From assembly GCA_963809485.1 (NCBI GenBank), contig CAWEJX010000016.1, positions 1 to 64,000 on the forward strand: 64,000 nucleotides of DNA. The letters are read 5' to 3'. The notes beneath the pieces were generated by a model. The model was not told where the DNA came from and made no database searches. It worked only from the letters and a program-made list of their open reading frames with translations. The stretch is from an uncultured Acidobacteriota bacterium. GTDB taxonomy: Bacteria; Acidobacteriota; UBA6911. Of this stretch, positions 33,783 to 46,739 are shown one piece after another; the stretch's first letter is position 1, and each line of letters begins with the position of its first letter. The position numbers were made by a program, and so were the translations under genes.

Positions 33783-34514
33783 TTATGCGTCGAGCTGAAT
33801 CTGCATGCAGAGATTCATGGCCGGAGTGACCTCCCCGAAGATTGCCATCATCGACTCAACCAGGTCCACTCCCGAGGAGGATTGAACCTCTTTTTCCGGC
33901 ATCGGATAATAAACCTGGAAACCCGCCCAGGAAGCTGCCGGAGCGTCTTCAAGGACCTTCTTCAGCTTTGCCATGCTGGGGAAATTGTTTTTTTTGAATT
34001 CCCCCATGCTGTCCCAGCCCGTGGCAGCCTCCACTATAAAACCTTCCTTAAAAACCAGCCGTTTAAGCTCCCGCGCCATGGCACCTGCGGGTTTCAAAGA
34101 CCCAAGCAGCCGGTGCCAGTCATAGTCCGGTTTTATTTCGGCTTTTGGAAAATCAGGCGGGGCCTGAAGAAATCCGCGCTCGACAGAGAAACCGCATCTA
34201 AAAAGCCTCTCTTCCGTGTCCACCGTGAGAAAGAACTTCGAGCACCCAAAGCTGACCTTTGAGGAAACCGGCTTGGCATCGCGGTTGGCGCGGGGCAAAA
34301 AGCCGATCCACTGCCAGTAGACGCCGCGGCCGTAGCGTTCCGTTACGAAAGGCTGCTGATACCGTGCCTCCAGGGCCAGCTTAAGGATGCGCGTGATCCG
34401 CTGGTTGTCCTCAAGGTTGCCGACGTGTATGCCTCTCTGAAAATCGAGATACTCCGGCTTGAACCCGATCGCAGTCCGCGGAAAAGCCTTCATTACCTGA
34501 ATCTTTGCTGTCAT
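33783..34514 (-). CDS. hypothetical protein
   Basis: long ORF with protein-like composition, co-oriented with its neighbours; no family recognised. Confidence 0.65.
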   Translation of the reverse strand: MTAKIQVMKAFPRTAIGFKPEYLDFQRGIHVGNLEDNQRITRILKLALEARYQQPFVTERYGRGVYWQWIGFLPRANRDAKPVSSKVSFGCSKFFLTVDTEERLFRCGFSVERGFLQAPPDFPKAEIKPDYDWHRLLGSLKPAGAMARELKRLVFKEGFIVEAATGWDSMGEFKKNNFPSMAKLKKVLEDAPAASWAGFQVYYPMPEKEVQSSSGVDLVESMMAIFGEVTPAMNLCMQIQLDA

Positions 34515-34574
34515 AGAGTGTTTAGGATAGCACGTTTGCTCCATCGGGAAAAATGTCACGAATGGCCGGACTTC

Positions 34575-34640
34575 CTCTGGGTGCCCGTCCATAAATCTTA
34601 ACGCTGACGAACGCTGAAAAAATTGCGAATAAATACCATT
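34575..34640. repeat. REP-like/ACGCTGA repeat family, copy 2
   Basis: ctctgggtgcccgtccataaatcttaacgctgacgaacgctgaaaaaatt. Confidence 0.55.
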
Positions 34641-34682: not shown

Positions 34683-35372
34683 CTATAATATTAGCGGTTT
34701 GGGGATTGAGTTGGGTTGGTCCGAGCCCAGGGTAAGCACGTATCCCTGCAAGCTGCGCCACCAGCCGCAAAATTTCCGGGAGGATTCCAGGCAACGCCCG
34801 CTCCAGGCATTCCATTGGTCTTCCCTCGTCTCGGGATCGATAAGCACGCTGACACTGCGCGTATCCCGCCGCAATCCTTCCCGCAATATTTTGAGTATCG
34901 TTTCCTTGGCGCTCCAGATGAGATTAACAGTCAGCTGCCGGTCCACTGCAGGAGTCTGCTTCACATAGGATATCTCTTCGGCCGTAAAGTAGTCCTCGAC
35001 GAGCTCCACCTCGCGCGGCTCCATCCATTCCAGGTCGCAACCGACAGCAAGCCCGGCCGGGCCCACGACGCAAAGGCCCATATCCCGGCTGTGGCTGATA
35101 GATATGGAGACTCCACCGGGTCCATCTTTCCAGAAGACTTCGGGAGAGCCGTCAGACGCGGCTCGAATCTCAAGCGACGGCAGAGATGACGCGTCTTTGC
35201 CCCCATAGCCACAAATAGCCTGCTTGGCCGTCCAGCGACCCAGCCTCCAGTCGTTGCGCCGTTTCGGGAAACGCAGACCTTCGAGAATCTTGCGCTCTCC
35301 TTCGCTCAGCCAGCGGTCATACTCGGGCACATCTTTCTGGATTTGAATAAGCCAATGGAGACTTGTAGTCAT
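34683..35372 (-). CDS. Sfp-type 4'-phosphopantetheinyl transferase
   Basis: SISHS, VGCDLE, WSAKETILK motifs; adjacent to the PKS. Confidence 0.9.
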   Translation of the reverse strand: MTTSLHWLIQIQKDVPEYDRWLSEGERKILEGLRFPKRRNDWRLGRWTAKQAICGYGGKDASSLPSLEIRAASDGSPEVFWKDGPGGVSISISHSRDMGLCVVGPAGLAVGCDLEWMEPREVELVEDYFTAEEISYVKQTPAVDRQLTVNLIWSAKETILKILREGLRRDTRSVSVLIDPETREDQWNAWSGRCLESSRKFCGWWRSLQGYVLTLGSDQPNSIPKPLIL

Positions 35373-35435: not shown

Positions 35436-38400
35436 CTACGCTTTTAGGGCGAGTGCGATCGGGTCAACCAGGTCCTGCTGAATCGGGTCGGGCAGATCCA
35501 TGGTCCGGTAACCCTGCAAGGTCAAATATACGTTCCCCTTTTCGTCGACGATTTTTGCGTCGCAGGCTCCGTCCGGTTTCGGAAGGACTATTGAATAGAA
35601 TTCCGCATTCTCCGCGTTCTCCGGTGCGGACAACAACTTCAAACTCCCGACAGAAAAGGGCAAGCCCAGGCGGGACTGAAGCCCAAGGCGGGACAGACTG
35701 CCCGTCTGGAAGCACAGTTCGACGAACCGCGGAGACGCGAATACGGGCAATTCCGAAGGCATGTGGTTTGCCGGCAGGTTTGCCGCAAATTTGCCAATCA
35801 CGCTGTCTCCCGACCGCCACGCACTATCAATCACCTGGTACGCCGGCCCGTGGAAAAACACCCGGTAAATCTGATCTGCGCCAACTTTCTCCGCCTTTTC
35901 CGGCAAAGGCTTCCGGCTGTCTTTCTCAGCCTGCGCATTGCCGGTAGTCAGCCGCACACGCGCCGTAAAGTGAGTCGTGATCTCCGGCTCCGCTTGTCCG
36001 TGCAGCGTGCGGGCCCCGAGCAGCCTGCATTCCGCGACGATATCTTCCTTGTCCGCTCGGAAAAACGCGTGGACCGTCAGACTCCTCGGCTGGCCGCGAT
36101 AGAATTTGAACGGCGTAAGAAAATTTATATCCTCTATGGCGCCGATGCTGCGTTCCGGGAAAAGGAACTTCGCCGCTTCAGCCATAGCCTCGATGCCCAT
36201 GACTCCGGGCAGAACCGGCGTCATGCTGATCTGGTGATCATACAGGAACGGCTGCTTCGCCGGATCGAACGAGGATTCGACGGTCAAACCGCCGTACACT
36301 CCCATCCCCAGGACCTCGCCGGTCATAATGCCCCGGTTGCGCAACAAGGGATCGAGAGGTCCGCCGGCGCTGGTATCCAGGCCGCCCTGAGGATCGAACT
36401 CCTTGACCAGGATCCCCAGTTTCCGGCCAATAACCAGTTCTCCGCTTGTGCCCGCAATCAGTTCCCGGCGGATAACCGGTATGCCGGCTTCAGGCGGCAG
36501 CATATCGATTCCGGCCTGTTTCATAATGGCCGGGATTGAGCCTCTGGCCGCCATCCCGATGCCGCTCCACGCGGTCCAGTCGATGGCGATGCCGCGGGTG
36601 GACGGGCGGGAGGACCGGAAATTGGAAATGCACTTGCACAGCAGGTCGTTTGCGCTGCTGTAGTCGGTCTGCCCGGAGTTGCCGAAACGGCCCGCTACAG
36701 AGCTGAAGACCACGGCAGCGCCGACGGGCATGCCGCCTATGCCGGACATCAGGTTGAACCAGCCGTCGCTCTTGACATCAAAGACCAGGTCGAACTCGCC
36801 CGGCTTTTTGTCGGGCAGCATATGGCTGATTTCCACCCCTGCGGCGTGCAGCAAGACATCGATGCGTCCGTGCCGCTCCGAGATCTCTTTCACAACCCGT
36901 GCGACAGAAGCCGGATCCAGCAGATCGAGACTGTAGTAATAAGCAGTGCCGCCGGCGTTGCGGACAGACTGGATTGCCGTGAGAGCCGCTTTGGAGCGCT
37001 CGAGAGACGCGAGTTCCCTGTCGACCATCGCGGGAGTGGCCCGTTCGCCGCGCAGCTTGAGCCGTTCGAAAATATCCCGTTTCAGGCTTTCCCTGTCCGT
37101 GTTCAGCCGCGCCAGGTCGCTGTTGCGGGCATCCGGTTCAGGCGTCAGATCGAGCAGGTAGAATATTCCGCCGGAGGCTGCTGCAAGATCCGCCGTAATC
37201 GCCGAAACGATGCTTCCGGCAGCTCCTGTAACCAGGAAAACGGTTTCCTCATCCAGCTTCACTGCAGGTTCTCCTGCGGCCGCCGCCTGCTCCTTCAATC
37301 CGATGGTCCAGCGCTGAGCATCTTTATATCCGACCTCCACGACACCGGGATCGCGCAGAGTTTCATCAATCAGCAGATCGGCGAGCGCGCTGGTTTTGCG
37401 GCTTGGCTCGAAATCGACGACTTTCACCGTCGCATCGGGCTTTTCACGCTTGAAAGCTTTGGTAAAGCCCGTTACGGCGCCTCCCAGCGGGTCTGCTGCA
37501 CCGGCATCGTCATAGCCGTGCAGCCCGCCAAGGCGCGTTGCCGACACGAGGAAGGTTCCCGCCGGCCCGACCTGATCATACAGGGCCTGCATGACGCTAA
37601 ACAGCAGCTTCGCCCGTACCCTGGTCGCTTCGCGCCACTGGGCCAGGCTCATGGCGGACACTTCACCCTGGCTGTCGAGAGCCGGGAGCCAGTACACACC
37701 CTGGATCGCGCCTTCAGCTTTCCAGCTTTCGAGATACCTGGCCAGAAACTTCGCGTCCGGCACGCCGTCAATCACCAGCGATTGGACGCCCAGCTTCTCC
37801 AGCCTGGCTGCAAGAGCTTTTCCGACCCCGCCCTGATCCGGCATGATGATGACGCGGCTTCCGGATTTCAAAGCTACGTCGGTGGATTTGCACAGCGATA
37901 ACGCCGGCCTCAGTTGCGGCACCGGTATCCGCCGCGGAACCGAGTTGGCGGCCTCCATGCTGCCTGCAATCACAGCCGGCGCCGCCTCGGCCCGCGCAAC
38001 CGCCGCAGGTTTGGACTCGGCCTGTGCTGCGGCTCCGCCCTTTTTCAGTTCCGGCTTGCGGTCATAGACAAACTGGATCGTGTGGGCCAGCGTCGGGAAA
38101 TCGCGCAGCTTCAGGTTGTCCTCGCGCGGGATATCGTAAGCGGCGCGTATGGCGGCAAACATCTCCGCCTGTTTGACGGTGTCAATTCCAAGGTCCGCCT
38201 CCAGATCCAGATCGAGGTCGAGCATATCGGGCGGATACCCGGTTTTCTCGGCGATGATCCGCAGGACAGTATCTTTGACAGAATCCCCTGCTGACCCCGC
38301 CGCCGGAGCAGGCCCTGCCTCAATAGCGGATGGTCCAGGCTCAGCGGCCGGTGTCGCTTTCTGAGCTTGAGCAACTGCTCCCGTGGCTGCCGCTTTCAGA

Positions 38401-41400
38401 TCCGGCCGGCGGTCGTAAACAAACTGGATCGTGTGGGCCAGAGTCGGGAAATCCCGCAGCTTGAGATTGTCTTCGCGCGGGATATCGTAAGCGGCGCGTA
38501 TGGCGGCGAACATCTCCGCCTGTTTGACCGTGTCGATTCCAAGGTCGGCCTCCAGATCAAGGTCGAGGTCAAGCATATCGGGCGGATACCCGGTCTTCTC
38601 GGCAATGATCTGCAAGACAGTTTCTTTTACCGAATCTTTTGAAGCTTCAACCGCAGAAGCGGGCACCTGTGCACTTTGGGAGGATTCAGGCACAGCGGCT
38701 GCCGGAATTGCGTTGGGAGCCTGGGCTGCTGCCGCGGAGGCGGCCAGCTTTAAATCCGGCCTGCGGTCGTAGACAAATTGTATGGCGTGAGCCAGTGTTG
38801 GAAAGTCGCGCAATTTCAGGTTGTCTTCACGCGGAATATCATAGGCCGCGCGAATGGCAGCAAACATTTCGGCCTGTTTCACCGTATCGATACCCAGGTC
38901 GGCCTCCAGATCGAGATCGAGATCGAGCATGTCGGTGGGATAACCGGTTTTTTCCGAAATGATCTGCATGACCTGAACCTGCACATCGTCAAGCATCCGT
39001 GCAGCAGGTGAAACAGCGGCGGATTCCACTGTTTTGGTTTCCGCTCGAAGCTCGGCCTGGAGACCTGCGACGGCATGTTGCGGCGCAGGCTCTGGCGAGG
39101 GTACAGACGACTTCGCGGCCTGCAGAGAGTTTGAGGCGCCGTTTTCCCTCCAGTCTGTCGGGCCCTGGTCTTTGGCACGCAATGTGCGCTGGACGATTTC
39201 AAGCTCAGGCGCCTCGTAACCCGTAAGGCGCTTCAGCCAGCTGTTCCAGGCTGCCGGGTCCTCAATGCGATAGCCGTAACCGAGAGCCGAGGGAGGCTGT
39301 CTCTTTCCATCGGGCGCAGGCGTCCATCGCATCAGGGTCATGGAAATTTGCGAACCGAAGCCTGCGCCCAGCCGCAGCGCATAGCGCATCGGCTGGTATC
39401 CTCCCCTGGACAGGTTCAGAGTGCCCAGTTCGGGGTCCACCTCCTTGAAGTTGGGAACGGGCGGAACGATCCCGGTCTCGAGCATTTTGACCGACACCAC
39501 ATCCTCGATGCCGACGGCCATCGGATGGCCGGTGGCGCCTTTCGTGTTGGCGACCAGAATCCGATCCGTGGCCTCTTTGAAAACGTGCCGCAGGGCGAAC
39601 ACTTCCGCGGAAGCGCTTCCTCCGCGGGCCGGAGTGTAGGTCTCGTGGGAAACGAAGACTGTTTCCGGAGCAATCTGGAACCGGTTAAGGCCCCATTCAG
39701 CTTCGGCATTGGCGATCAGCTTTTCCATGACATGCCGGATGTGGCTGACGTCGAGCCGAGTACCATGATACGCGCTGTTGGCGACCACGGAACCCAAGAC
39801 CTGGCAGATCGGGCGGATGCCGCGCTCGCGCGCAGCTTCCAGGCTTTCGAGCACGACAGCCGACGCACCCATCCCAATGAGCAGACCATGGCGCCTGCGG
39901 TCGAAAGGCGTTGCCGCGTCTTCCACCCTCTCGTCGGTCGCCGCGGATCCGGAAGCCAGGAAGCCCGAGCCGAACCAGCCCAACAGGTTGTCGGAAGTAA
40001 TGTCGTCGGCGGAAATAATGATGACACGGCGGCAGCGGCCGGTTCGTATCCAGTCGCTGGCCAGGCCGACAGCCTGCGTGCCGCTCGAGCAGGCGCCGTT
40101 GGTGGAGGTGTTCGGGCCGCGGGCGCCGATGTATTCGGCAAATTGCGAGTGGCCCATGGAAAGCACCCGGAAGAGGAACCTGCGGTCGAAATGATAGGTA
40201 TTCGCCTCGATTTCCTTGCTCAGAGCCTCGATGCGCCGCTCGATTTCGGCGGCGATGGCTGTGTCGCGTCCGGCCTGCAAGGCCAGGCTGCGCAGGCTGT
40301 CGAGTTCCGCCAGACGTTCGCGGCGGATGCGCTCCTGGTAGAAGCCCGAAATAATTTCGGCATAGGCGTCGTAACCGGGGAAAGCGGATGTGAAAAGTAT
40401 TCCGGTGTCATCCCGTATCGCATCCGGGAGCATCCATCGATCGGGGAGTTTGGTCCCCTTGGTGGTTGTCTTGTAGTGCATGACCAGGGGAATTCCGGCG
40501 TCGCGCAACGCATCGATCCCGGCGCCTATCGCCAGCTTGGTCACGCGATCGAGCGCGGGCAGCCGGTCTTCGGGAAAACCGAAATCGCGCACGAGGTCGA
40601 GGTCTCTGGAACGGGCAGCGAGCTTGATCACATCATCCAGGTGGTTGATGGATTCGAATCTTCCTTCACCGCCTTCCGTCTTGACCAGACGCGTGATGTT
40701 CTTCTCCACCATAGCCTCTCGCAGCCGCATGGGAATAGGCTCGATAAACACATCCCCGCGCAACATGCGTTCGACATTGGTATCGTCGAAAACGCGGTCG
40801 ACCCCAGGCAATCCCAGCGCGGCGCCGGTAACGCATATATCCACAGGGGCCTGCGAACGCTTGCCTCCCGAATAAATCTGGAATCCCCGGTCGAGGAATT
40901 CGGTAAACAGCTTCCCCAGTTCCACGTACCGGTCGGATCCGGCTTCGACAGGACGAGAGGCTTCCTGAGCCCTTTCGGCCCTATAGGCCGGCACGGAAGG
41001 CGCCGGCGCGGGCATGAAAGCCTGCGGGGCCGGGATCGATTCCCGGATTTCAGCTGTGGGCTTTTTTCCCTGTACTTTTGCCGCAATGCCCACACCCAGG
41101 CCCGCGGCATACAGGCCGCACAGGGCGAGATTGAGCGAGGCCGCCTCGCCGATTCTCGGATGGTTGGTGAACAAAGCGACAACGCCCTCGCGTTCGCCCA
41201 GAACATCCTCAACAAAACCGTAGAGGATTCTCTTGGGGCCCAGTTCGACAAAGATGCGCGCTCCGGCATCATACAGAGTATTGAGCCCCTTCACGAATTG
41301 GACCGGGGAATACACCTGCCTCCCCAGCAGGCCAATCATCTCCGGCACGACACCCGGGCCCATGGGATAAAAATCCCCAAGCACGTTGGAGATGATGGGG

Positions 41401-43883
41401 ATTTCCGGGGGACGCAGGTTCATGGTCCCGAGAATTGTGGCCAGGGATTCGCCCGCAGGCGCCACAATCCGCGTGTGGAAGGCGTGGCTGACCTGCAGCG
41501 GGCGCGCGACATAACCGCCATCGCGCACTGCCGCCATCGCTTTCTCGACGCCCGTCGTCGATCCGCCAATTACGGCCTCTTTGGTACTGTTGATGTTGGC
41601 GATGACGACATAGTCGTCGACCGTGGCCAGTATTTTTTCGATTTTGTCGATCGGCCCGAAGACGGCGGCCATCATGCCGTTGTCGTCCAGGGCGCATCGG
41701 GTCATTTCGTTACCGCGAGCGCTGACGGCTTTCAGGGCTTCCTCGAAGGATATGGCGCCGCACGCCACAAGCGCACCGTATTCGCCTAAGCTGTGCCCCA
41801 TGACCATGTCCGGGGCGATGCCGTAAGCGTAGAGCATGCGGGCAAGAGCGGTCTCGGTCGCCAGGACTGCAGGCTGGGTGATCGCCGTCTGCTTCAGTCC
41901 GTCTTCGGCAGCCGCGAGCGCCGCTTCATCCGATTTGTCGAGATAAATGCAGCTCGTCAGAGTTCTGCCCAGCAGAGGTTCCATGACGCGATCCGCTTCT
42001 TCATAGACTTTGGTCACAATCGGTTCGGTCGCCCGGAGCGTCTGGAGCATGTTTACGTATTGAGAACCCTGGCCGGTGAAAAGGAACGCCACCTTGGGGA
42101 CAGGGCCTTTGCCCAGGAAAATTCCTTTGGGCCGCAACGCTTTCCACCTTCCGGCCTGGTTCTCCTCGAATGCTTTCAGCGCTTTTCCGGCTTTGTCGGC
42201 CAGCTCTGCCGCGTTTCCATAATCGATGGCCACGCGCACATTGGACTGCAGATCGGACTCGAGGGGAGGCGCCGGTTCCGGTGCTTTCCCGGCCGCAGCC
42301 TCCCGGGCCACGGCTTTCAGCCGGGCGATCAGTGCAGCTTCCGACTCCGCACCCAATACGAAAGCTCCGCGCAGAGGCATCTTGAGATTTGCGGACGGTT
42401 TCGCGCCGAATGAGCCTTCGGGAACCGATACGGCCGCCTTGCGCTCATCCGCTATCCTTCCGGGGACATATTCCTCAAGGACAACGTGGAAGTTGGTTCC
42501 ACCGAATCCAAAGGCGCTGACTGCGGCCCGGCGTACATTCCCGGGCTTCACGTCCCAAGGCCTTAGCTCGGTATTAACGTAAAAAGGAGATGCGGAAAAA
42601 TCAAAATTGGGATTGGGCTGATTGAAGTTCAGGCTTGGCGGCAGTTCCCGCTTGTTCAGGGCGAAGGCCGCCTTCAGGATGCCGGCGGCTCCGGCTGCGC
42701 CTTTTAGATGTCCGACATTTGATTTCACCGATCCCAGTGCGATGGAACCTACGGGAAGTCCGATGTCTTTGAGGGCTTCCGACAGGCTTTCCAGTTCCGC
42801 GACATCCCCGACAGGGGTTGATGTGCCGTGCCCTTCGATCAGGTCTCCCTGGGCCGGGACGACACCGGCATTCTGCCAGGCTCGTCGGATGCAAAGCCTC
42901 TGTCCAACCGGATTGGGCGCCGTAATGCCTTTCCCCTTTCCGTCACTCGATCCCCCGATACCGCGTATCACAGCGTAGATCCTGTCACTGTCGCGTTCGG
43001 CATCGGCCAGTCGTTTCAACAGAAATACAACGGCTCCTTCGCCCATCACGAAACCGTCCGCGCCATCCGCGTAAGGCCGGGATCCCTTGCCGGAAAGGGC
43101 GCCGATTTTGCAGAACTTCACAAAGGTGGAAGGGCTCATGTTGGTGTCGATCCCGCCCGTCAGGACTGCGTCGTAGTCGCTGCCGCCCAATCCCTCGATA
43201 GCGGCGCTCATGGCCGCCATGGCAGATGCGCAGGCAGCGTCGGCGACGAAATTCGGGCCCTTGAAGTCGTACAGCGCGGCGATACGGCCGGCAACAATAT
43301 TGGCCAGCTCCCCGGGCATTGTGTCCTCCGTGATGGGAGGGGTCTTGCGGCGGACGCCTTCGTGCAGCTGTTCAAGGATTGCCTGGCGAACCGGAAGCGG
43401 CAAGGAAGAGTAGCTGGCAGATTTGATCAGCTCTTCGGCAAATTCGGGAAAGAGGATGCGGGCGGCGGAATACAGGTGCGTATCGCCGGCCATGGCGTTA
43501 CCCAGGATCACGGCTGTGCGTTCAGGATTCAGCGGGCGGCCCGGATACCCGTAGTCGCTCAAAGCCTCGCGGGCCGTAACCACGGCCCATTTCTGCGTAA
43601 GGTCCATCGCCAGGCTGACGCGCGGAGGAATCGGCAGCTTCCACTTCAGCGGATCCCATTCCCAGTCACGCACCCAGCCGCCGATTTTTGAATAGGTCTT
43701 GTCCGGCGCTTTAGGATCCGGGTCGTAATAGAGGTTCGGATCCCAACGATCGCGTGAGACTTCGGTGATGCTATATCGGCCCTCTCTGATGTTCTGCCAG
43801 AATTTTGGCGCATTGGCCGCGTCCGGCATCAGGGCTCCTACGCCGACAATCGCAACAGCTTTATCAGCCGCAGATACTCTCAT
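35436..43883 (-). CDS. type I PKS/FAS-like megasynthase, KS-AT-KS-ACP-ACP-ACP-KR-DH
   Basis: KS1 DAACAS/HGTST/KSNVGH; AT GQGSQY/GHSLG/HAFH; KS2 NGACSS/HETYT/TKGATGH; 3x [41 protein letters not shown]. Confidence 0.93.
   Translation of the reverse strand: [2815 protein letters not shown]
38050..38995 (-). repeat. three tandem ACP-coding repeats with Ala/Pro-rich linkers
   Basis: near-identical [55 protein letters not shown] units. Confidence 0.92.
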
Positions 43884-43934: not shown

Positions 43935-45593
43935 TTATTTCTTATCCCGTCCGTACAGGACGTCCGCCACATAATCCAGGTCCTGCACCAGTCCTGCCTG
44001 TGCAAGAAGCAATTGCTGGGAAAGTAATTTCTGGTTAAGCTTCATCGCATCTTGTTCGGGCAAGAGCCCGCCGATCCATCGGACGCCTTCGGCCGCTACT
44101 TTCATAGCAGCGTCCCGGGTGGAAATCCGGCTCAACGCGGCAAGATTTTCGGCAGTGAAACGGGCATGGGCTTTGGCGTTCACCTCTCCCCTGGCTGCGC
44201 GAGCCGCCCGGCGGGCAAGGCTTGCGGCGCCTTCGGCGTATGCGATCCATTCGCCCAGCCGGAAGAGGATGTGTTGATGCCGCGTAAGCCGCTGCGCGCG
44301 GGCCACCTCGAGCAGCTCCGCAAGGGCATGAAGCGCGTAGCTGACGGTCTGAGCGCCCACACGCTCGTTCTGCCGGTGCAGATCTTCCATCCCCCGCGCC
44401 ATAGCGTGATAAAACTGGCCGTGCGTTTTGAGATGAGATTGCCAGCGGTCACGGCTGATCGTCATCTCCATGATTTCAGACGTTCCTTCATAAATTGTCG
44501 TGATTCGGGCATCGCGCTTGATCTTTTCCACCATATACTCGCGCGTGTAGCCATAGCCGCCGAGCGCCTGAATGGAAGCGTCGGCCGCGAGGTTCCCCGC
44601 TTCGGTGGCGAGATATTTTGCGATGGCGCCTTCGGTATTCAGGTTGCCCTCGTCGCTGTCGATGCGTTCGGCCGTCTCCTCGATAAAGGAACGCGCGGTT
44701 TCCAGGCGTGCGGCGTGGGGCACGATGAGTTTGTGAGTGTATCCCTGTTTTTCGGAGAGCGGCGTTCCTCCCTGGATGCGCCCCATGGAATACGGGATGG
44801 CTCGGTCCAAAGCCGCCCAGCCCGATCCCAGACCGAAAGCGGCAACCATGAGACGGGTGTAGCCGAAAACCAGCTGGGCCTGGATCAGGCCCTGGCCTTC
44901 CACGCCTCCCAGCAGGCGGTCGGCGTCGACGTACACACCTTCCAGCGATACCGTAGCGGTATTGCTGGCGCGTATCCCGTGCTTATCCTCCGGCTTCCCG
45001 TGGCTCAGCCCGGGAGTGTCCTTTTCGACCACAAACCAGCTGGGGCCGCCGGGCGCCTTGGCCAGAACGCTGTACAGGTCGGCAAAACCGCCGTTGCTGA
45101 TCCACTGCTTGTTTCCCGTTATCTTGTACCCGGCCACTTTGCCGTCTTTTGTTACAGGATCAGCCACCGTGCGCAGAGCCGCAAGGTCGCTGCCCGCTTC
45201 CGGCTCGGTAGCGCCATAGGCCATAAGCAGCCCTTCCTGGCCGATGCGCGTCATCCAGAGTTTCTTCTGCTCGTGGGTGCCGCCGAAGATAATCGGGTCG
45301 CTGCCCAGGAATGTCGCCAGGACCCCTGTGGCGACACCCAAATCGACGCGGGCCAGTTCTTCGCAGACCCTGTAGACGTCAAAAGCGCCTCCCCCCATAC
45401 CGTCGAACTCTTCCGGGATGAAAAGGAGCTGAATGCCAAGTCCGGCACCGCACATTTCCCGCACGATATCCGAGGGAAATTCTTCGGTTGCGTCCAGTTC
45501 GAGGATCTTCTTTTCCGGCAGCCTGGCGGCGGTGAAGTCCTTGAGCGATTCCAGCGTCAAATCGAGAGTCTCTTTATCCAATCCTTTGTGCAT
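43935..45593 (-). CDS. acyl-CoA dehydrogenase family protein with C-terminal extension
   Basis: [42 protein letters not shown]. Confidence 0.92.
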
Positions 45594-45677: not shown

Positions 45678-46739
45678 CTACGCGCGCAGCAGCAGCGCCC
45701 CCCAGTTCATGCCTGCCCCGAATGCGACCATGAGCACCAGATCGCCTTTATGAATCCGGCCGGTGCGCGTGGCCTCGTCCCAGAGCAGAGGGATGGTCGC
45801 CGCCGTGGTATTCCCGTATTTGTGAATGTTGTGGATCACCTTTTCTTCCGGTATGTTCAGCATTTTCTGCACGCGTTCGTTGATGCGTTTGTTGGCCTGG
45901 TGCATCAGAACCAAAGATATGTTCTCCAGTTTCAGGTTGTTGCGTTCGAGGATCTCCTTTGTGACGGCCGCCATACTGTTTGCGGCGTTTCGGAATACGT
46001 ACATGCCGTTCATCACAGGTATATGATCCCCTCGTAGAAGCTGGCCCGAATCCACGTAGGGTCTATGTTTGAATCCGGCGCCCGGCACGTAGATCCTGTC
46101 GTATTCGCTCCCGTCGGTGTGCAGGATGCAGTCCAGAACGCCGCGGTCCTCCTCTTCGGCCTTGAGGACGACGGCGGCTCCCGCATCCCCGAACAGCACG
46201 GTCACGTTCCGGAACCGGGTGTTCCATTCATACTCCTCTGGCGTCGGGGGAACCGCCGTTTTCCCGTACATATAGCTGTAGTTTTCCGCAGTCCACGGCA
46301 TGAAGCCGGTATGCGTTTCGGCCCCGACCACCAGCACCGCTTTTGCCACACCTGAGCGTATCTGAGCATCCGCCAGTTGGATGCCGTACAGAAAGCCTGC
46401 GCATTGCTGCCGGATGTCGAAACAAGGAATGTCCCGGATTTCCAGCTTGGACTGGAGAAGCCCCCCGCACCCCGGGAAAAAATAATCGGGGGTCATGGTT
46501 GCGAAAACAATCATGTCCAGGTCGTTTTTGTCGATGCCGGCAGAGTTTATAGCCTCGCTTGCCGCCGCCACGCCAAGATCGGATGTTGAGATGCCTTCGT
46601 CGACATAGTACCGGGTCTCCACGCCGCTGCGCTCCCTGATCCAGTCGTCTCCGGCATCCATAATCCTGGACAGCATGCCGTTGGTTACCTTGTTGGGTGG
46701 GACGCAAGCGCCGCTCCCGACTATTACGGCTCGCACCAT
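45678..46739 (-). CDS. fabH: beta-ketoacyl-ACP synthase III (FabH-like)
   Basis: QQCAGF (Cys), LFGDAGAA, HQAN, YGNTTAA, FGAGMNWG. Confidence 0.88.
   Translation of the reverse strand: MVRAVIVGSGACVPPNKVTNGMLSRIMDAGDDWIRERSGVETRYYVDEGISTSDLGVAAASEAINSAGIDKNDLDMIVFATMTPDYFFPGCGGLLQSKLEIRDIPCFDIRQQCAGFLYGIQLADAQIRSGVAKAVLVVGAETHTGFMPWTAENYSYMYGKTAVPPTPEEYEWNTRFRNVTVLFGDAGAAVVLKAEEEDRGVLDCILHTDGSEYDRIYVPGAGFKHRPYVDSGQLLRGDHIPVMNGMYVFRNAANSMAAVTKEILERNNLKLENISLVLMHQANKRINERVQKMLNIPEEKVIHNIHKYGNTTAATIPLLWDEATRTGRIHKGDLVLMVAFGAGMNWGALLLRA

Follow-up and report, generated by a model that had tools for sequence, protein, structure and literature searches.

Threonine at the phosphopantetheine site of the tandem acyl carrier domains of an acidobacterial PfaA-like synthase and its relatives, and a co-inherited Sfp-type transferase

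'Type R secondary lipid synthases', whose product is uncharacterised, were described by Shulse & Allen 2011 (PLoS One, PMC3098273; here and below as far as its accessible text goes) as one pfaA homologue with the order ketosynthase (KS)-malonyl acyltransferase (MAT)-'CLF'-acyl carrier protein (ACP)(3-6)-ketoreductase (KR), followed by a gene for a 4'-phosphopantetheinyl transferase (PPTase) with an hShxH (P1b') motif. They were reported from Acidobacteria, Chloroflexi and Elusimicrobia, with Koribacter versatilis Ellin345, Solibacter usitatus Ellin6076, Roseiflexus castenholzii and Elusimicrobium among the hosts, and in Koribacter an acetyl-CoA carboxylase (ACC) gene lies between synthase and PPTase. 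The locus treated here lies in a window of 64,000 nucleotides (the whole stretch that was analysed, positions 1 to 64,000 of contig CAWEJX010000016.1, assembly GCA_963809485.1) from an uncultured Acidobacteriota bacterium of the UBA6911 lineage. It comprises a PfaA-like megasynthase gene of the Type R kind (35436..43883, minus strand; 2815 aa from the open reading frame (ORF) list, translation and Pfam matches) with the layout KS1-AT-KS2-ACP-ACP-ACP-KR-DH (AT, acyltransferase; DH, dehydratase), a PPTase gene downstream of it and an acyl-CoA dehydrogenase (ACAD) family gene upstream. The likeness to Type R is close, as the synthase has a KS, an AT, a second KS-like domain, three ACPs and a KR, with a DH in addition, the downstream PPTase contains ISISH, and an ACC gene separates synthase and PPTase in 47 of 60 long loci of relatives. 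The window differs in that its 'CLF', the paper's own label, keeps Cys-His-His, and the partners of the ACAD and electron-transfer flavoprotein (ETF) type that are conserved among its relatives go unmentioned in the accessible text of PMC3098273. The words threonine and serine are absent from that text, which treats the ACPs as ordinary. The cluster type has been known since 2011; what would be new is Thr as the acceptor residue. Comparative and model-based evidence makes it quite probable that the three tandem domains are working ACPs that carry 4'-phosphopantetheine (Ppant) on this Thr and are primed by a co-inherited Sfp-type PPTase.

A second relative is PfaA of the polyunsaturated fatty acid (PUFA) synthases (TIGR02813), which is the best NCBIfam match of the synthase, in two stretches of which the better covers residues 7-909, with a score below the cut-off (945.9 bits versus 1010.1). 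The two share the order KS-AT, tandem ACPs and KR-DH, the acidic LEADLGID motif and an Sfp-type PPTase within the cluster, and the tandem amplification of ACPs across the family also resembles PUFA synthases. Apart from its score, the window synthase differs from PfaA by the extra KS2 between AT and ACPs and by Thr for the Ser of LGIDSI. PfaD is the usual enoyl reductase of PUFA synthases, whereas an ACAD-family gene stands beside the window synthase.

To our knowledge, attachment of Ppant to a conserved Ser is treated as a universal rule in fatty-acid, polyketide and non-ribosomal peptide synthesis, and UniProt and RESID list the serine form only. In the megasynthase, the Ser of (D/G)xDS that would be the acceptor is replaced by Thr in all three carrier domains, each of which matches the PP-binding family. 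ACP1 (aa 1629-1713; 38745..38999, minus strand) has Thr1667, with the codon ACG at 38883-38885, ACP2 (aa 1747-1831; 38391..38645, minus strand) has Thr1785, with ACG at 38529-38531, and ACP3 (aa 1864-1948; 38040..38294, minus strand) has Thr1902, with ACC at 38178-38180. A script run on the translation located GIDT motifs at aa 1667, 1785 and 1902, each within LDLDLEADLGIDTVKQAEMF, and this re-location agreed exactly with the LEADLGIDTVK that the original prediction, made from the window alone, had read in every ACP and with the codon positions it had given. Pfam PP-binding (PF00550) reaches 65.5 bits over three stretches against a cut-off of 20.8, and in the genome scan the domains score 27.5-30.9 bits each, all above the cut-off. 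A motif scan found no G-x-D-S in the entire 2815-aa synthase, and there is no PP-binding match besides these three domains on the whole 151,658-bp contig, in line with the earlier statement that neither the protein nor the operon holds another ACP.

Thr occupies the canonical acceptor position of these domains. A sequence search of the Protein Data Bank (PDB) with the ACP region returned a sole solved chain, that of the PigH tandem ACP didomain (5y08, E = 5.3e-10), whose DLGVDSI aligns residue for residue with DLGIDTV under HMMER and sets Ser opposite Thr; apart from this Ser, PigH differs from the synthase in being a protein of prodigiosin biosynthesis and not a lipid megasynthase. For ACP2, AlphaFold2 run on an alignment of 17 family ACPs gave a model with a predicted local distance difference test (pLDDT) score of 87.2 and helices at 5-18, 39-53 and 69-79, with residue 39, the Thr, opening helix II. 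The model has the small helical-bundle fold of an ACP, in which helix II starts with the attachment residue, and it matches AcpP and other ACPs at template-modelling (TM) scores of 0.74-0.81 in Foldseek. No Ser is invariant in the 17-ACP alignment; the invariant hydroxyl residues are T18, T39 and T68, of which only T39 stands at the canonical place.

Thr at this site is a non-random hallmark of a large synthase family. A search with the ACP region gave 7370 proteins at E <= 1e-3 among 8000 candidates scored, and in the best 120 of them plus the query Thr fills 599 of 601 core motifs (the others being one Ala and one Met), in a search that selects by common words and is biased toward the motif. 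The two deviating motifs are one tandem copy each in P0036 (DLGVDAVK) and P0117 (DLGIDMVK), in which the other copies have Thr, and are probably dead copies tolerated within the array. A search with KS2 avoids the motif bias, as relatives are selected independently of their ACPs. Run against 1.84 billion cluster representatives, it produced 10,636 matches at E <= 1e-3 and 653 at E <= 1e-30. Among the best 150 representatives, 119 contain ACP domains (the rest are fragments), and the 338 ACP domains of these proteins, found with a hidden Markov model built from the window's ACPs, have Thr in 317 cases, Ser in 12, a gap in 4 and another residue in 5. Finally, a scan of genomes with the KS2 alignment, with one genome per species, confirmed at least 584 relatives, of which the best 80 loci were analysed. 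These belong mostly to Acidobacteriota, the other hosts being Bacteroidota, Calditrichia, Gemmatimonadota, Verrucomicrobiia, Binatia, Myxococcales and Acidimicrobiales. ACP matches are present in 75 of the 80 loci, with Thr in 282 of 286, 3 gaps and 1 Ser that lies in a motif of another kind (DLGFDSMER). The expectation that homologues would conserve the Thr is borne out in both the KS2-selected and the genomic sample, and a family mostly with Ser, the outcome that would have spoken against it, did not arise (12 Ser versus 317 Thr among 338).

The codons at the site over the 75 loci are ACC (148), ACG (100), ACT (22) and ACA (12). All four Thr codons thus occur, although a single base change would give Ser, and it is therefore the amino acid that selection maintains, as had been suggested from the synonymous codons of the window. 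The Thr is real and is kept by amino-acid-level selection across phyla. These data refute an origin of the Thr codons in sequencing or assembly error or in a decaying gene, a reading with practically no probability left. The frame is uninterrupted over 2815 codons (ORF 35436-43883, minus strand), the three copies use two different Thr codons, which had already been taken to make sequencing error unlikely, and the same residue recurs in 282 of 286 ACP matches from 75 other genomes with all four codons. Nothing was found in favour of an artefact or decay, and the degenerate copies in P0036 (Ala) and P0117 (Met) amount to one in each protein.

The 12 Ser ACPs of the KS2-selected set fall in five proteins. 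P0181 is all Ser, with five DSVK motifs and one degenerate copy, P0243 has two Ser ACPs and P0251 one, P0170 has Ser at a truncated end, and P0219 mixes the acceptors in a single protein (DSIK, DTVK, DSIK). In P0181 and P0219 the residue four places on also differs, so that DTVKQ becomes DSVKV, DSIKA or DSIKI. A metagenome scan for the gene neighbourhood of P0181 yielded just a 26%-identical relative (L097). In a FastTree phylogeny of 103 KS2 domains, which takes two KS1 domains as its root and leaves aside P0243 with its incomplete KS2, P0181, P0251 and P0219 stand at three separate places, each within a clade (starred in the tree) that is otherwise Thr, and the earliest branches are Thr forms. 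This nesting, together with the early Thr branches, argues that Thr is ancestral and that Ser was regained a few times. Ser is the only recurrent substitute, as Ala or other residues essentially never take over. The occurrence of Thr or Ser and essentially no other residue indicates that selection keeps a hydroxyl at the acceptor position, as would be expected of a modified residue and not of an inert scaffold.

Alternatively, the Thr domains could be pseudo-carriers that never receive Ppant and serve as scaffolds or docking modules, with the growing chain held in trans by the housekeeping Ser-ACP, AcpP, or by CoA. This would agree with the behaviour of E. coli ACP(S36T), which, according to the accessible text of PMC3340395, 'cannot be post-translationally modified by 4'-PP' and is unable to stand in for acpP; S36T still served as a Ppant-site mutant in 2026 (PMC13343975, accessible in part). 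It would also agree with the presence in the genome of AcpS and of an AcpP (GADSL, in a plsX-acpP context), with a partner reductase from the acyl-CoA dehydrogenase family and with a FabH gene upstream. A scaffold needs no hydroxyl, however, yet Thr or Ser is found in 329 of the 338 KS2-selected domains and Ala in none. In addition, the ACPs are tandemly amplified, with 2-7 per locus in 70 of 75 loci (those with at least two ACP matches), they are strongly conserved (mean column identity of 78% across phyla in the 17-sequence alignment), and the dedicated PPTase described below (present in 7 of 7 synthase genomes and 0 of 144 others) would be left without a client on a contig that has no other carrier. 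The pseudo-carrier explanation is for these reasons considered unlikely. In E. coli, Thr at the same site is a null allele, whereas in the window family it is the selected state. Work on the 'DST' motif, in whose accessible text a Thr after the Ser hampers Sfp (PMC11744666, PMC12391972), concerns ACPs in which Thr adjoins Ser, whereas in the window ACPs Thr replaces Ser and is again the selected state. The KS, AT, KR and DH domains, which have intact motifs and need a thiol-tethered substrate, likewise favour working carrier domains.

The proposed Thr-priming enzyme is an Sfp-type PPTase of 229 aa (34683..35372, minus strand), encoded 63 bp past the synthase stop. That the next gene is a PPTase, as originally read, agrees with its Pfam ACPS score of 68.1 bits (cut-off 25), and 4PPT_N gives a further 26.4 bits. 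Its AlphaFold2 model (pLDDT 93.6) has the two-lobed, pseudo-dimeric fold of the ~230-aa Sfp-like enzymes, and the best Foldseek match is the Sfp-CoA-peptidyl carrier protein (PCP) complex 4mrt (TM 0.75), followed by human AASDHPPT and PptAb/PptT. By sequence, phmmer against the PDB gave weak AcpS matches only (E ~1e-3), and the enzyme was placed by fold search instead; for HetI the NCBIfam score is 42 bits, far from the cut-off at 370. Across the 17 cluster PPTases that were aligned, GCDLE has G111, C112 and D113 in every sequence and E115 in at least 90%, while W153, S154, K156 and E157 are invariant in WSAKE, which gives the Mg-binding D-x-E and catalytic W-x-x-K-E motifs of the Sfp type. 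We take the Asp and Glu of GCDLE to bind Mg and the Glu and Lys of WSAKE to be catalytic, roles known from work on Sfp. The P1b' motif hShxH reads ISISH, with S91, S93 and H94 invariant. The enzyme resembles Sfp (4mrt) in its fold at TM 0.75, in the D-x-E and W-x-x-K-E motifs and in a modelled acceptor that lies against the catalytic Glu; from Sfp and the other Sfp-type PPTases, AASDHPPT and PptT/PptAb, it differs by a strongly diverged sequence and by its presumed acceptor, Thr.

The genome has only two PPTase genes, an AcpS-like one and the one at 34683-35372, which is the sole non-AcpS PPTase. Synteny was counted over the best 80 loci, of which 34 contain a PPTase relative, 9-96 bp past the synthase in 16 and ~5.6-5.8 kb past it, behind one intervening ACC gene, in 18. 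Another 31 loci have available DNA that stops in or just past the intervening gene, and 14 are too short. Of the 35 loci in which the place of the PPTase is visible, 34 have it next to the synthase; the sole exception is L085, from a metagenome-assembled genome of Acidimicrobiales, in which 4.7 kb of downstream DNA has no PPTase match and the ACPs have Thr in 4 of 4. Co-occurrence was assessed in 151 genomes across the phylum. KS2 is present in 7 of these, and the same 7 carry PPTase matches of 134-526 bits, while among the other 144 (one of which, G024, is unpublished) there are 18 with weak matches, the best of 45 bits, and none with a strong one. A dedicated PPTase clade co-occurs and is syntenic with the synthase, as the original prediction had anticipated. 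It had also called the enzyme specialised, which the data support in the sense of dedicated co-occurrence and not of Thr specificity.

A model of PPTase, ACP, CoA and Mg together had an interface score (ipSAE) of 0.77 (runs 0.77, 0.77 and 0.78), against 0.00 for the best control. The mark on this score is reached by 58 of 80 solved complexes and by 2 of 110 mismatched pairs, and as similar complexes have been solved (Sfp-PCP 4mrt, PptAb-ACP, 6rcx), the high score may owe something to memorised structures. Between runs, 88% or more of the contacts are shared, and the partner has a pLDDT of 81 or above. In the model, ACP Thr39 contacts PPTase Glu157 (of WSAKE) and Leu167, the Val following the Thr touches Trp153 and Glu115, and the acidic LEADLG loop rests on the conserved Lys37/Arg38. 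The predicted arrangement is canonical as to geometry, which is distinct from binding or catalysis. Another explanation is that the Thr hydroxyl is functional and bears something else, either another phosphodiester-linked prosthetic group or an acyl chain as an oxoester. Selection that keeps the hydroxyl would fit this too, whichever group is attached. The co-occurring enzyme has the Sfp fold and CoA/Mg-binding motifs, however, KS-type Claisen chemistry is established to use thioesters, and the cluster conserves no further enzyme that might be a candidate for the modification, all of which make a different group very unlikely.

Besides the S36T result and the possible service in trans by a Ser-ACP, given that AcpP and AcpS are present, several points weigh against Ppant on Thr. 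All other carrier domains in the genome have Ser; these are AcpP (GADSL), an A-T-TE protein, two AMP-binding-carrier-acyltransferase proteins, a carrier-aminotransferase protein and an 81-aa stand-alone carrier (TMDST, contig C7:781878-782120). The PPTase is the sole enzyme of Sfp type, yet there are four Ser-type carrier domains in the larger proteins, so that these would have to be primed by AcpS unless the PPTase accepts Ser as well as Thr. Its catalytic motifs look ordinary, and no pocket specialised for the methyl group of Thr was identified in it. The Ser-type and mixed members show that Thr is not strictly required in the family, and the contrast of 7 of 7 with 0 of 144 overstates independence, as the genomes counted are related to each other and the 7 positives belong to 5 families. 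No precedent for Thr-linked Ppant or for an acceptor-site Thr in a natural ACP was found in the literature, in a search with most subscription journals and supplements outside its coverage, which matches the earlier remark that no characterised example was known. The support is comparative and model-based.

On the other side, the conservation of Thr in relatives and the co-occurrence of the PPTase clade support the Thr-linked Ppant that the original prediction had put forward, and the Thr would then in fact be phosphopantetheinylated by this PPTase. With slightly less confidence, we lean towards a broader view, namely that O-(4'-phosphopantetheinyl)-threonine is natural and widespread, occurring in iterative lipid megasynthases of several hundred species-level genomes in at least 9 phyla, that a co-inherited Sfp-type clade installs it, and that an ancestral switch to Thr insulates these carriers from AcpS. 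Why Thr would be preferred is a matter of speculation; perhaps it provides insulation from the housekeeping AcpS or a more stable phosphodiester. Shielding of the arm from the phosphodiesterase AcpH was also considered as a reason and dropped to speculation, as the 95.67%-complete genome has no PF04336 match.

In the mechanism proposed for the locus, Thr1667, Thr1785 and Thr1902, each at the start of its helix II, would receive Ppant on their hydroxyl groups, with CoA as the donor and the adjacent PPTase as the catalyst. The resulting holo-ACPs would work in an iterative lipid synthase of type I, whose AT would load malonyl, whose KS1 and KS2 would carry out the condensations and whose KR and DH would modify the chain. 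Enoyl reduction would fall to the upstream ACAD-like flavoprotein, with an electron-transfer flavoprotein as its partner in many relatives. Such a system would amount to a self-contained iterative lipid synthase with ACAD and ETF for enoyl reduction, and its product would presumably be a long-chain fatty acyl lipid.

Outside the ACPs, every catalytic motif of KS1, AT, KS2, KR and DH was located in a motif scan of the synthase, in keeping with the earlier reading of intact KS, AT, KR and DH sites. KS1 (aa 8-480; 42444..43862, minus strand) matches Pfam ketoacyl-synt, Ketoacyl-synt_C and KAsynt_C_assoc and has its motifs at Cys215, His350 and His387. The AT (aa 600-896; 41196..42086, minus strand; Pfam Acyl_transf_1, 148.8 bits) has GQGSQ, GHSLG and HAFH. 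The KR (Pfam stretch aa 2293-2440; 36564..37007, minus strand; Pfam KR, 75.8 bits) has its Tyr motif DYSSAN at aa 2407, and the DH (aa 2532-2802; 35478..36290, minus strand), of the polyketide synthase type (Pfam PKS_DH_N and PS-DH), has its His motif at aa 2548. KS2 (39294..40907, minus strand), the second ketosynthase-like domain that is the family signature and the 'CLF' of the 2011 description, is a weaker KS-like region in Pfam. It is not a chain-length factor in the sense of a domain that lacks the active-site Cys, as it retains Cys (NGACSS), His (SHETYTP) and His (GATGH). C273, H421 and H461 are invariant in an alignment of 9 sequences, and the C-terminal half resembles FabF (PDB sequence search, E = 1.4e-24). 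To judge from these residues, KS2 looks like an active second ketosynthase. An insertion of ~100 residues, rich in Arg, Glu and Ala, precedes its Cys.

The rules by which GxDS motifs are recognised, and the use of Ser-to-Thr and Ser-to-Ala changes as null alleles, both rest on the serine rule. If Ppant is indeed attached to Thr in this family, the chemistry of a universal modification is wider than thought, and the laboratory null allele Ser-to-Thr would be a working, selected state in nature. The PPTase clade would have a new acceptor tolerance and, combined with its carrier, could be used as an orthogonal pair in pathway engineering and in the labelling of proteins. Carrier domains without Ser, possibly dismissed as inactive in annotation and genome mining, would then need a second look. 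The locus also draws attention to a large lipid pathway common in soil Acidobacteriota, which comprises the synthase, an ACAD/ETF reductase, a single-chain ACC and a wax-ester/DGAT enzyme.

The gene for the ACAD-family flavoprotein (43935..45593, minus strand; 552 aa), which has Pfam Acyl-CoA_dh N, M and C matches, is the one immediately upstream of the synthase gene. A homologue (high-scoring segment pair of at least 300 aa) occupies the same position in 70 of the 80 loci. Its closest solved relatives are medium-chain acyl-CoA dehydrogenase and butyryl-CoA dehydrogenases, including enzymes of Etf complexes, and the flavoprotein probably serves the system as its enoyl reductase. Among the 60 loci that span 19 kb or more, 47 encode an Fe-S/CCG oxidoreductase, EtfB and EtfA ahead of the ACAD gene and a single-chain ACC between synthase and PPTase; 18 of the 60 also have a WS/DGAT acyltransferase upstream. 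This larger conserved cluster, with the order WS/DGAT (where present), Fe-S/CCG oxidoreductase, EtfB, EtfA, ACAD, synthase, ACC and PPTase, is seen in L072:44-21607 and 46 other loci among L023-L090 and is the form in most Terriglobia-type relatives, and the ACC of L072 is single-chain, eukaryote-like and 1863 aa long. From its gene content, this larger cluster suggests that enoyl reduction is coupled to ETF and that the product is a storage lipid or a wax. The window cluster is the compact form, ACAD-synthase-PPTase, and the sole EtfBA pair found in the genome with the L072 queries lies on another contig (C5).

That pair has an unusual neighbourhood, in which acpP (GADSL) is directly followed by etfB and etfA (C5:29433-31616, corresponding to L096:5433-7616). 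The AcpP was considered as a dedicated trans-ACP and set aside, as its yceD-plsX-acpP context marks it as the housekeeping copy. At this housekeeping plsX-acpP locus, no fabH, fabD, fabG or fabF gene adjoins.

Upstream of the ACAD gene is a gene for FabH (KAS III; 45678..46739, minus strand; 353 aa), which matches NCBIfam PRK09352 at 332.1 bits (cut-off 249). FabH is single-copy in the 6.04-Mb genome by tblastn and is found upstream only in the nearest relatives (L012, L014-L016). Its membership in the cluster is doubtful on both counts, and it may be the housekeeping copy instead. Downstream of the PPTase lies a gene for a 269-aa protein (33783..34592, minus strand) with no Pfam or NCBIfam match, which by tblastn is conserved (65-75% identity) only in L014 and L015, the two nearest relatives whose DNA reaches that far. 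A SerA-like gene follows this ORF in L014, L015 and the window alike.

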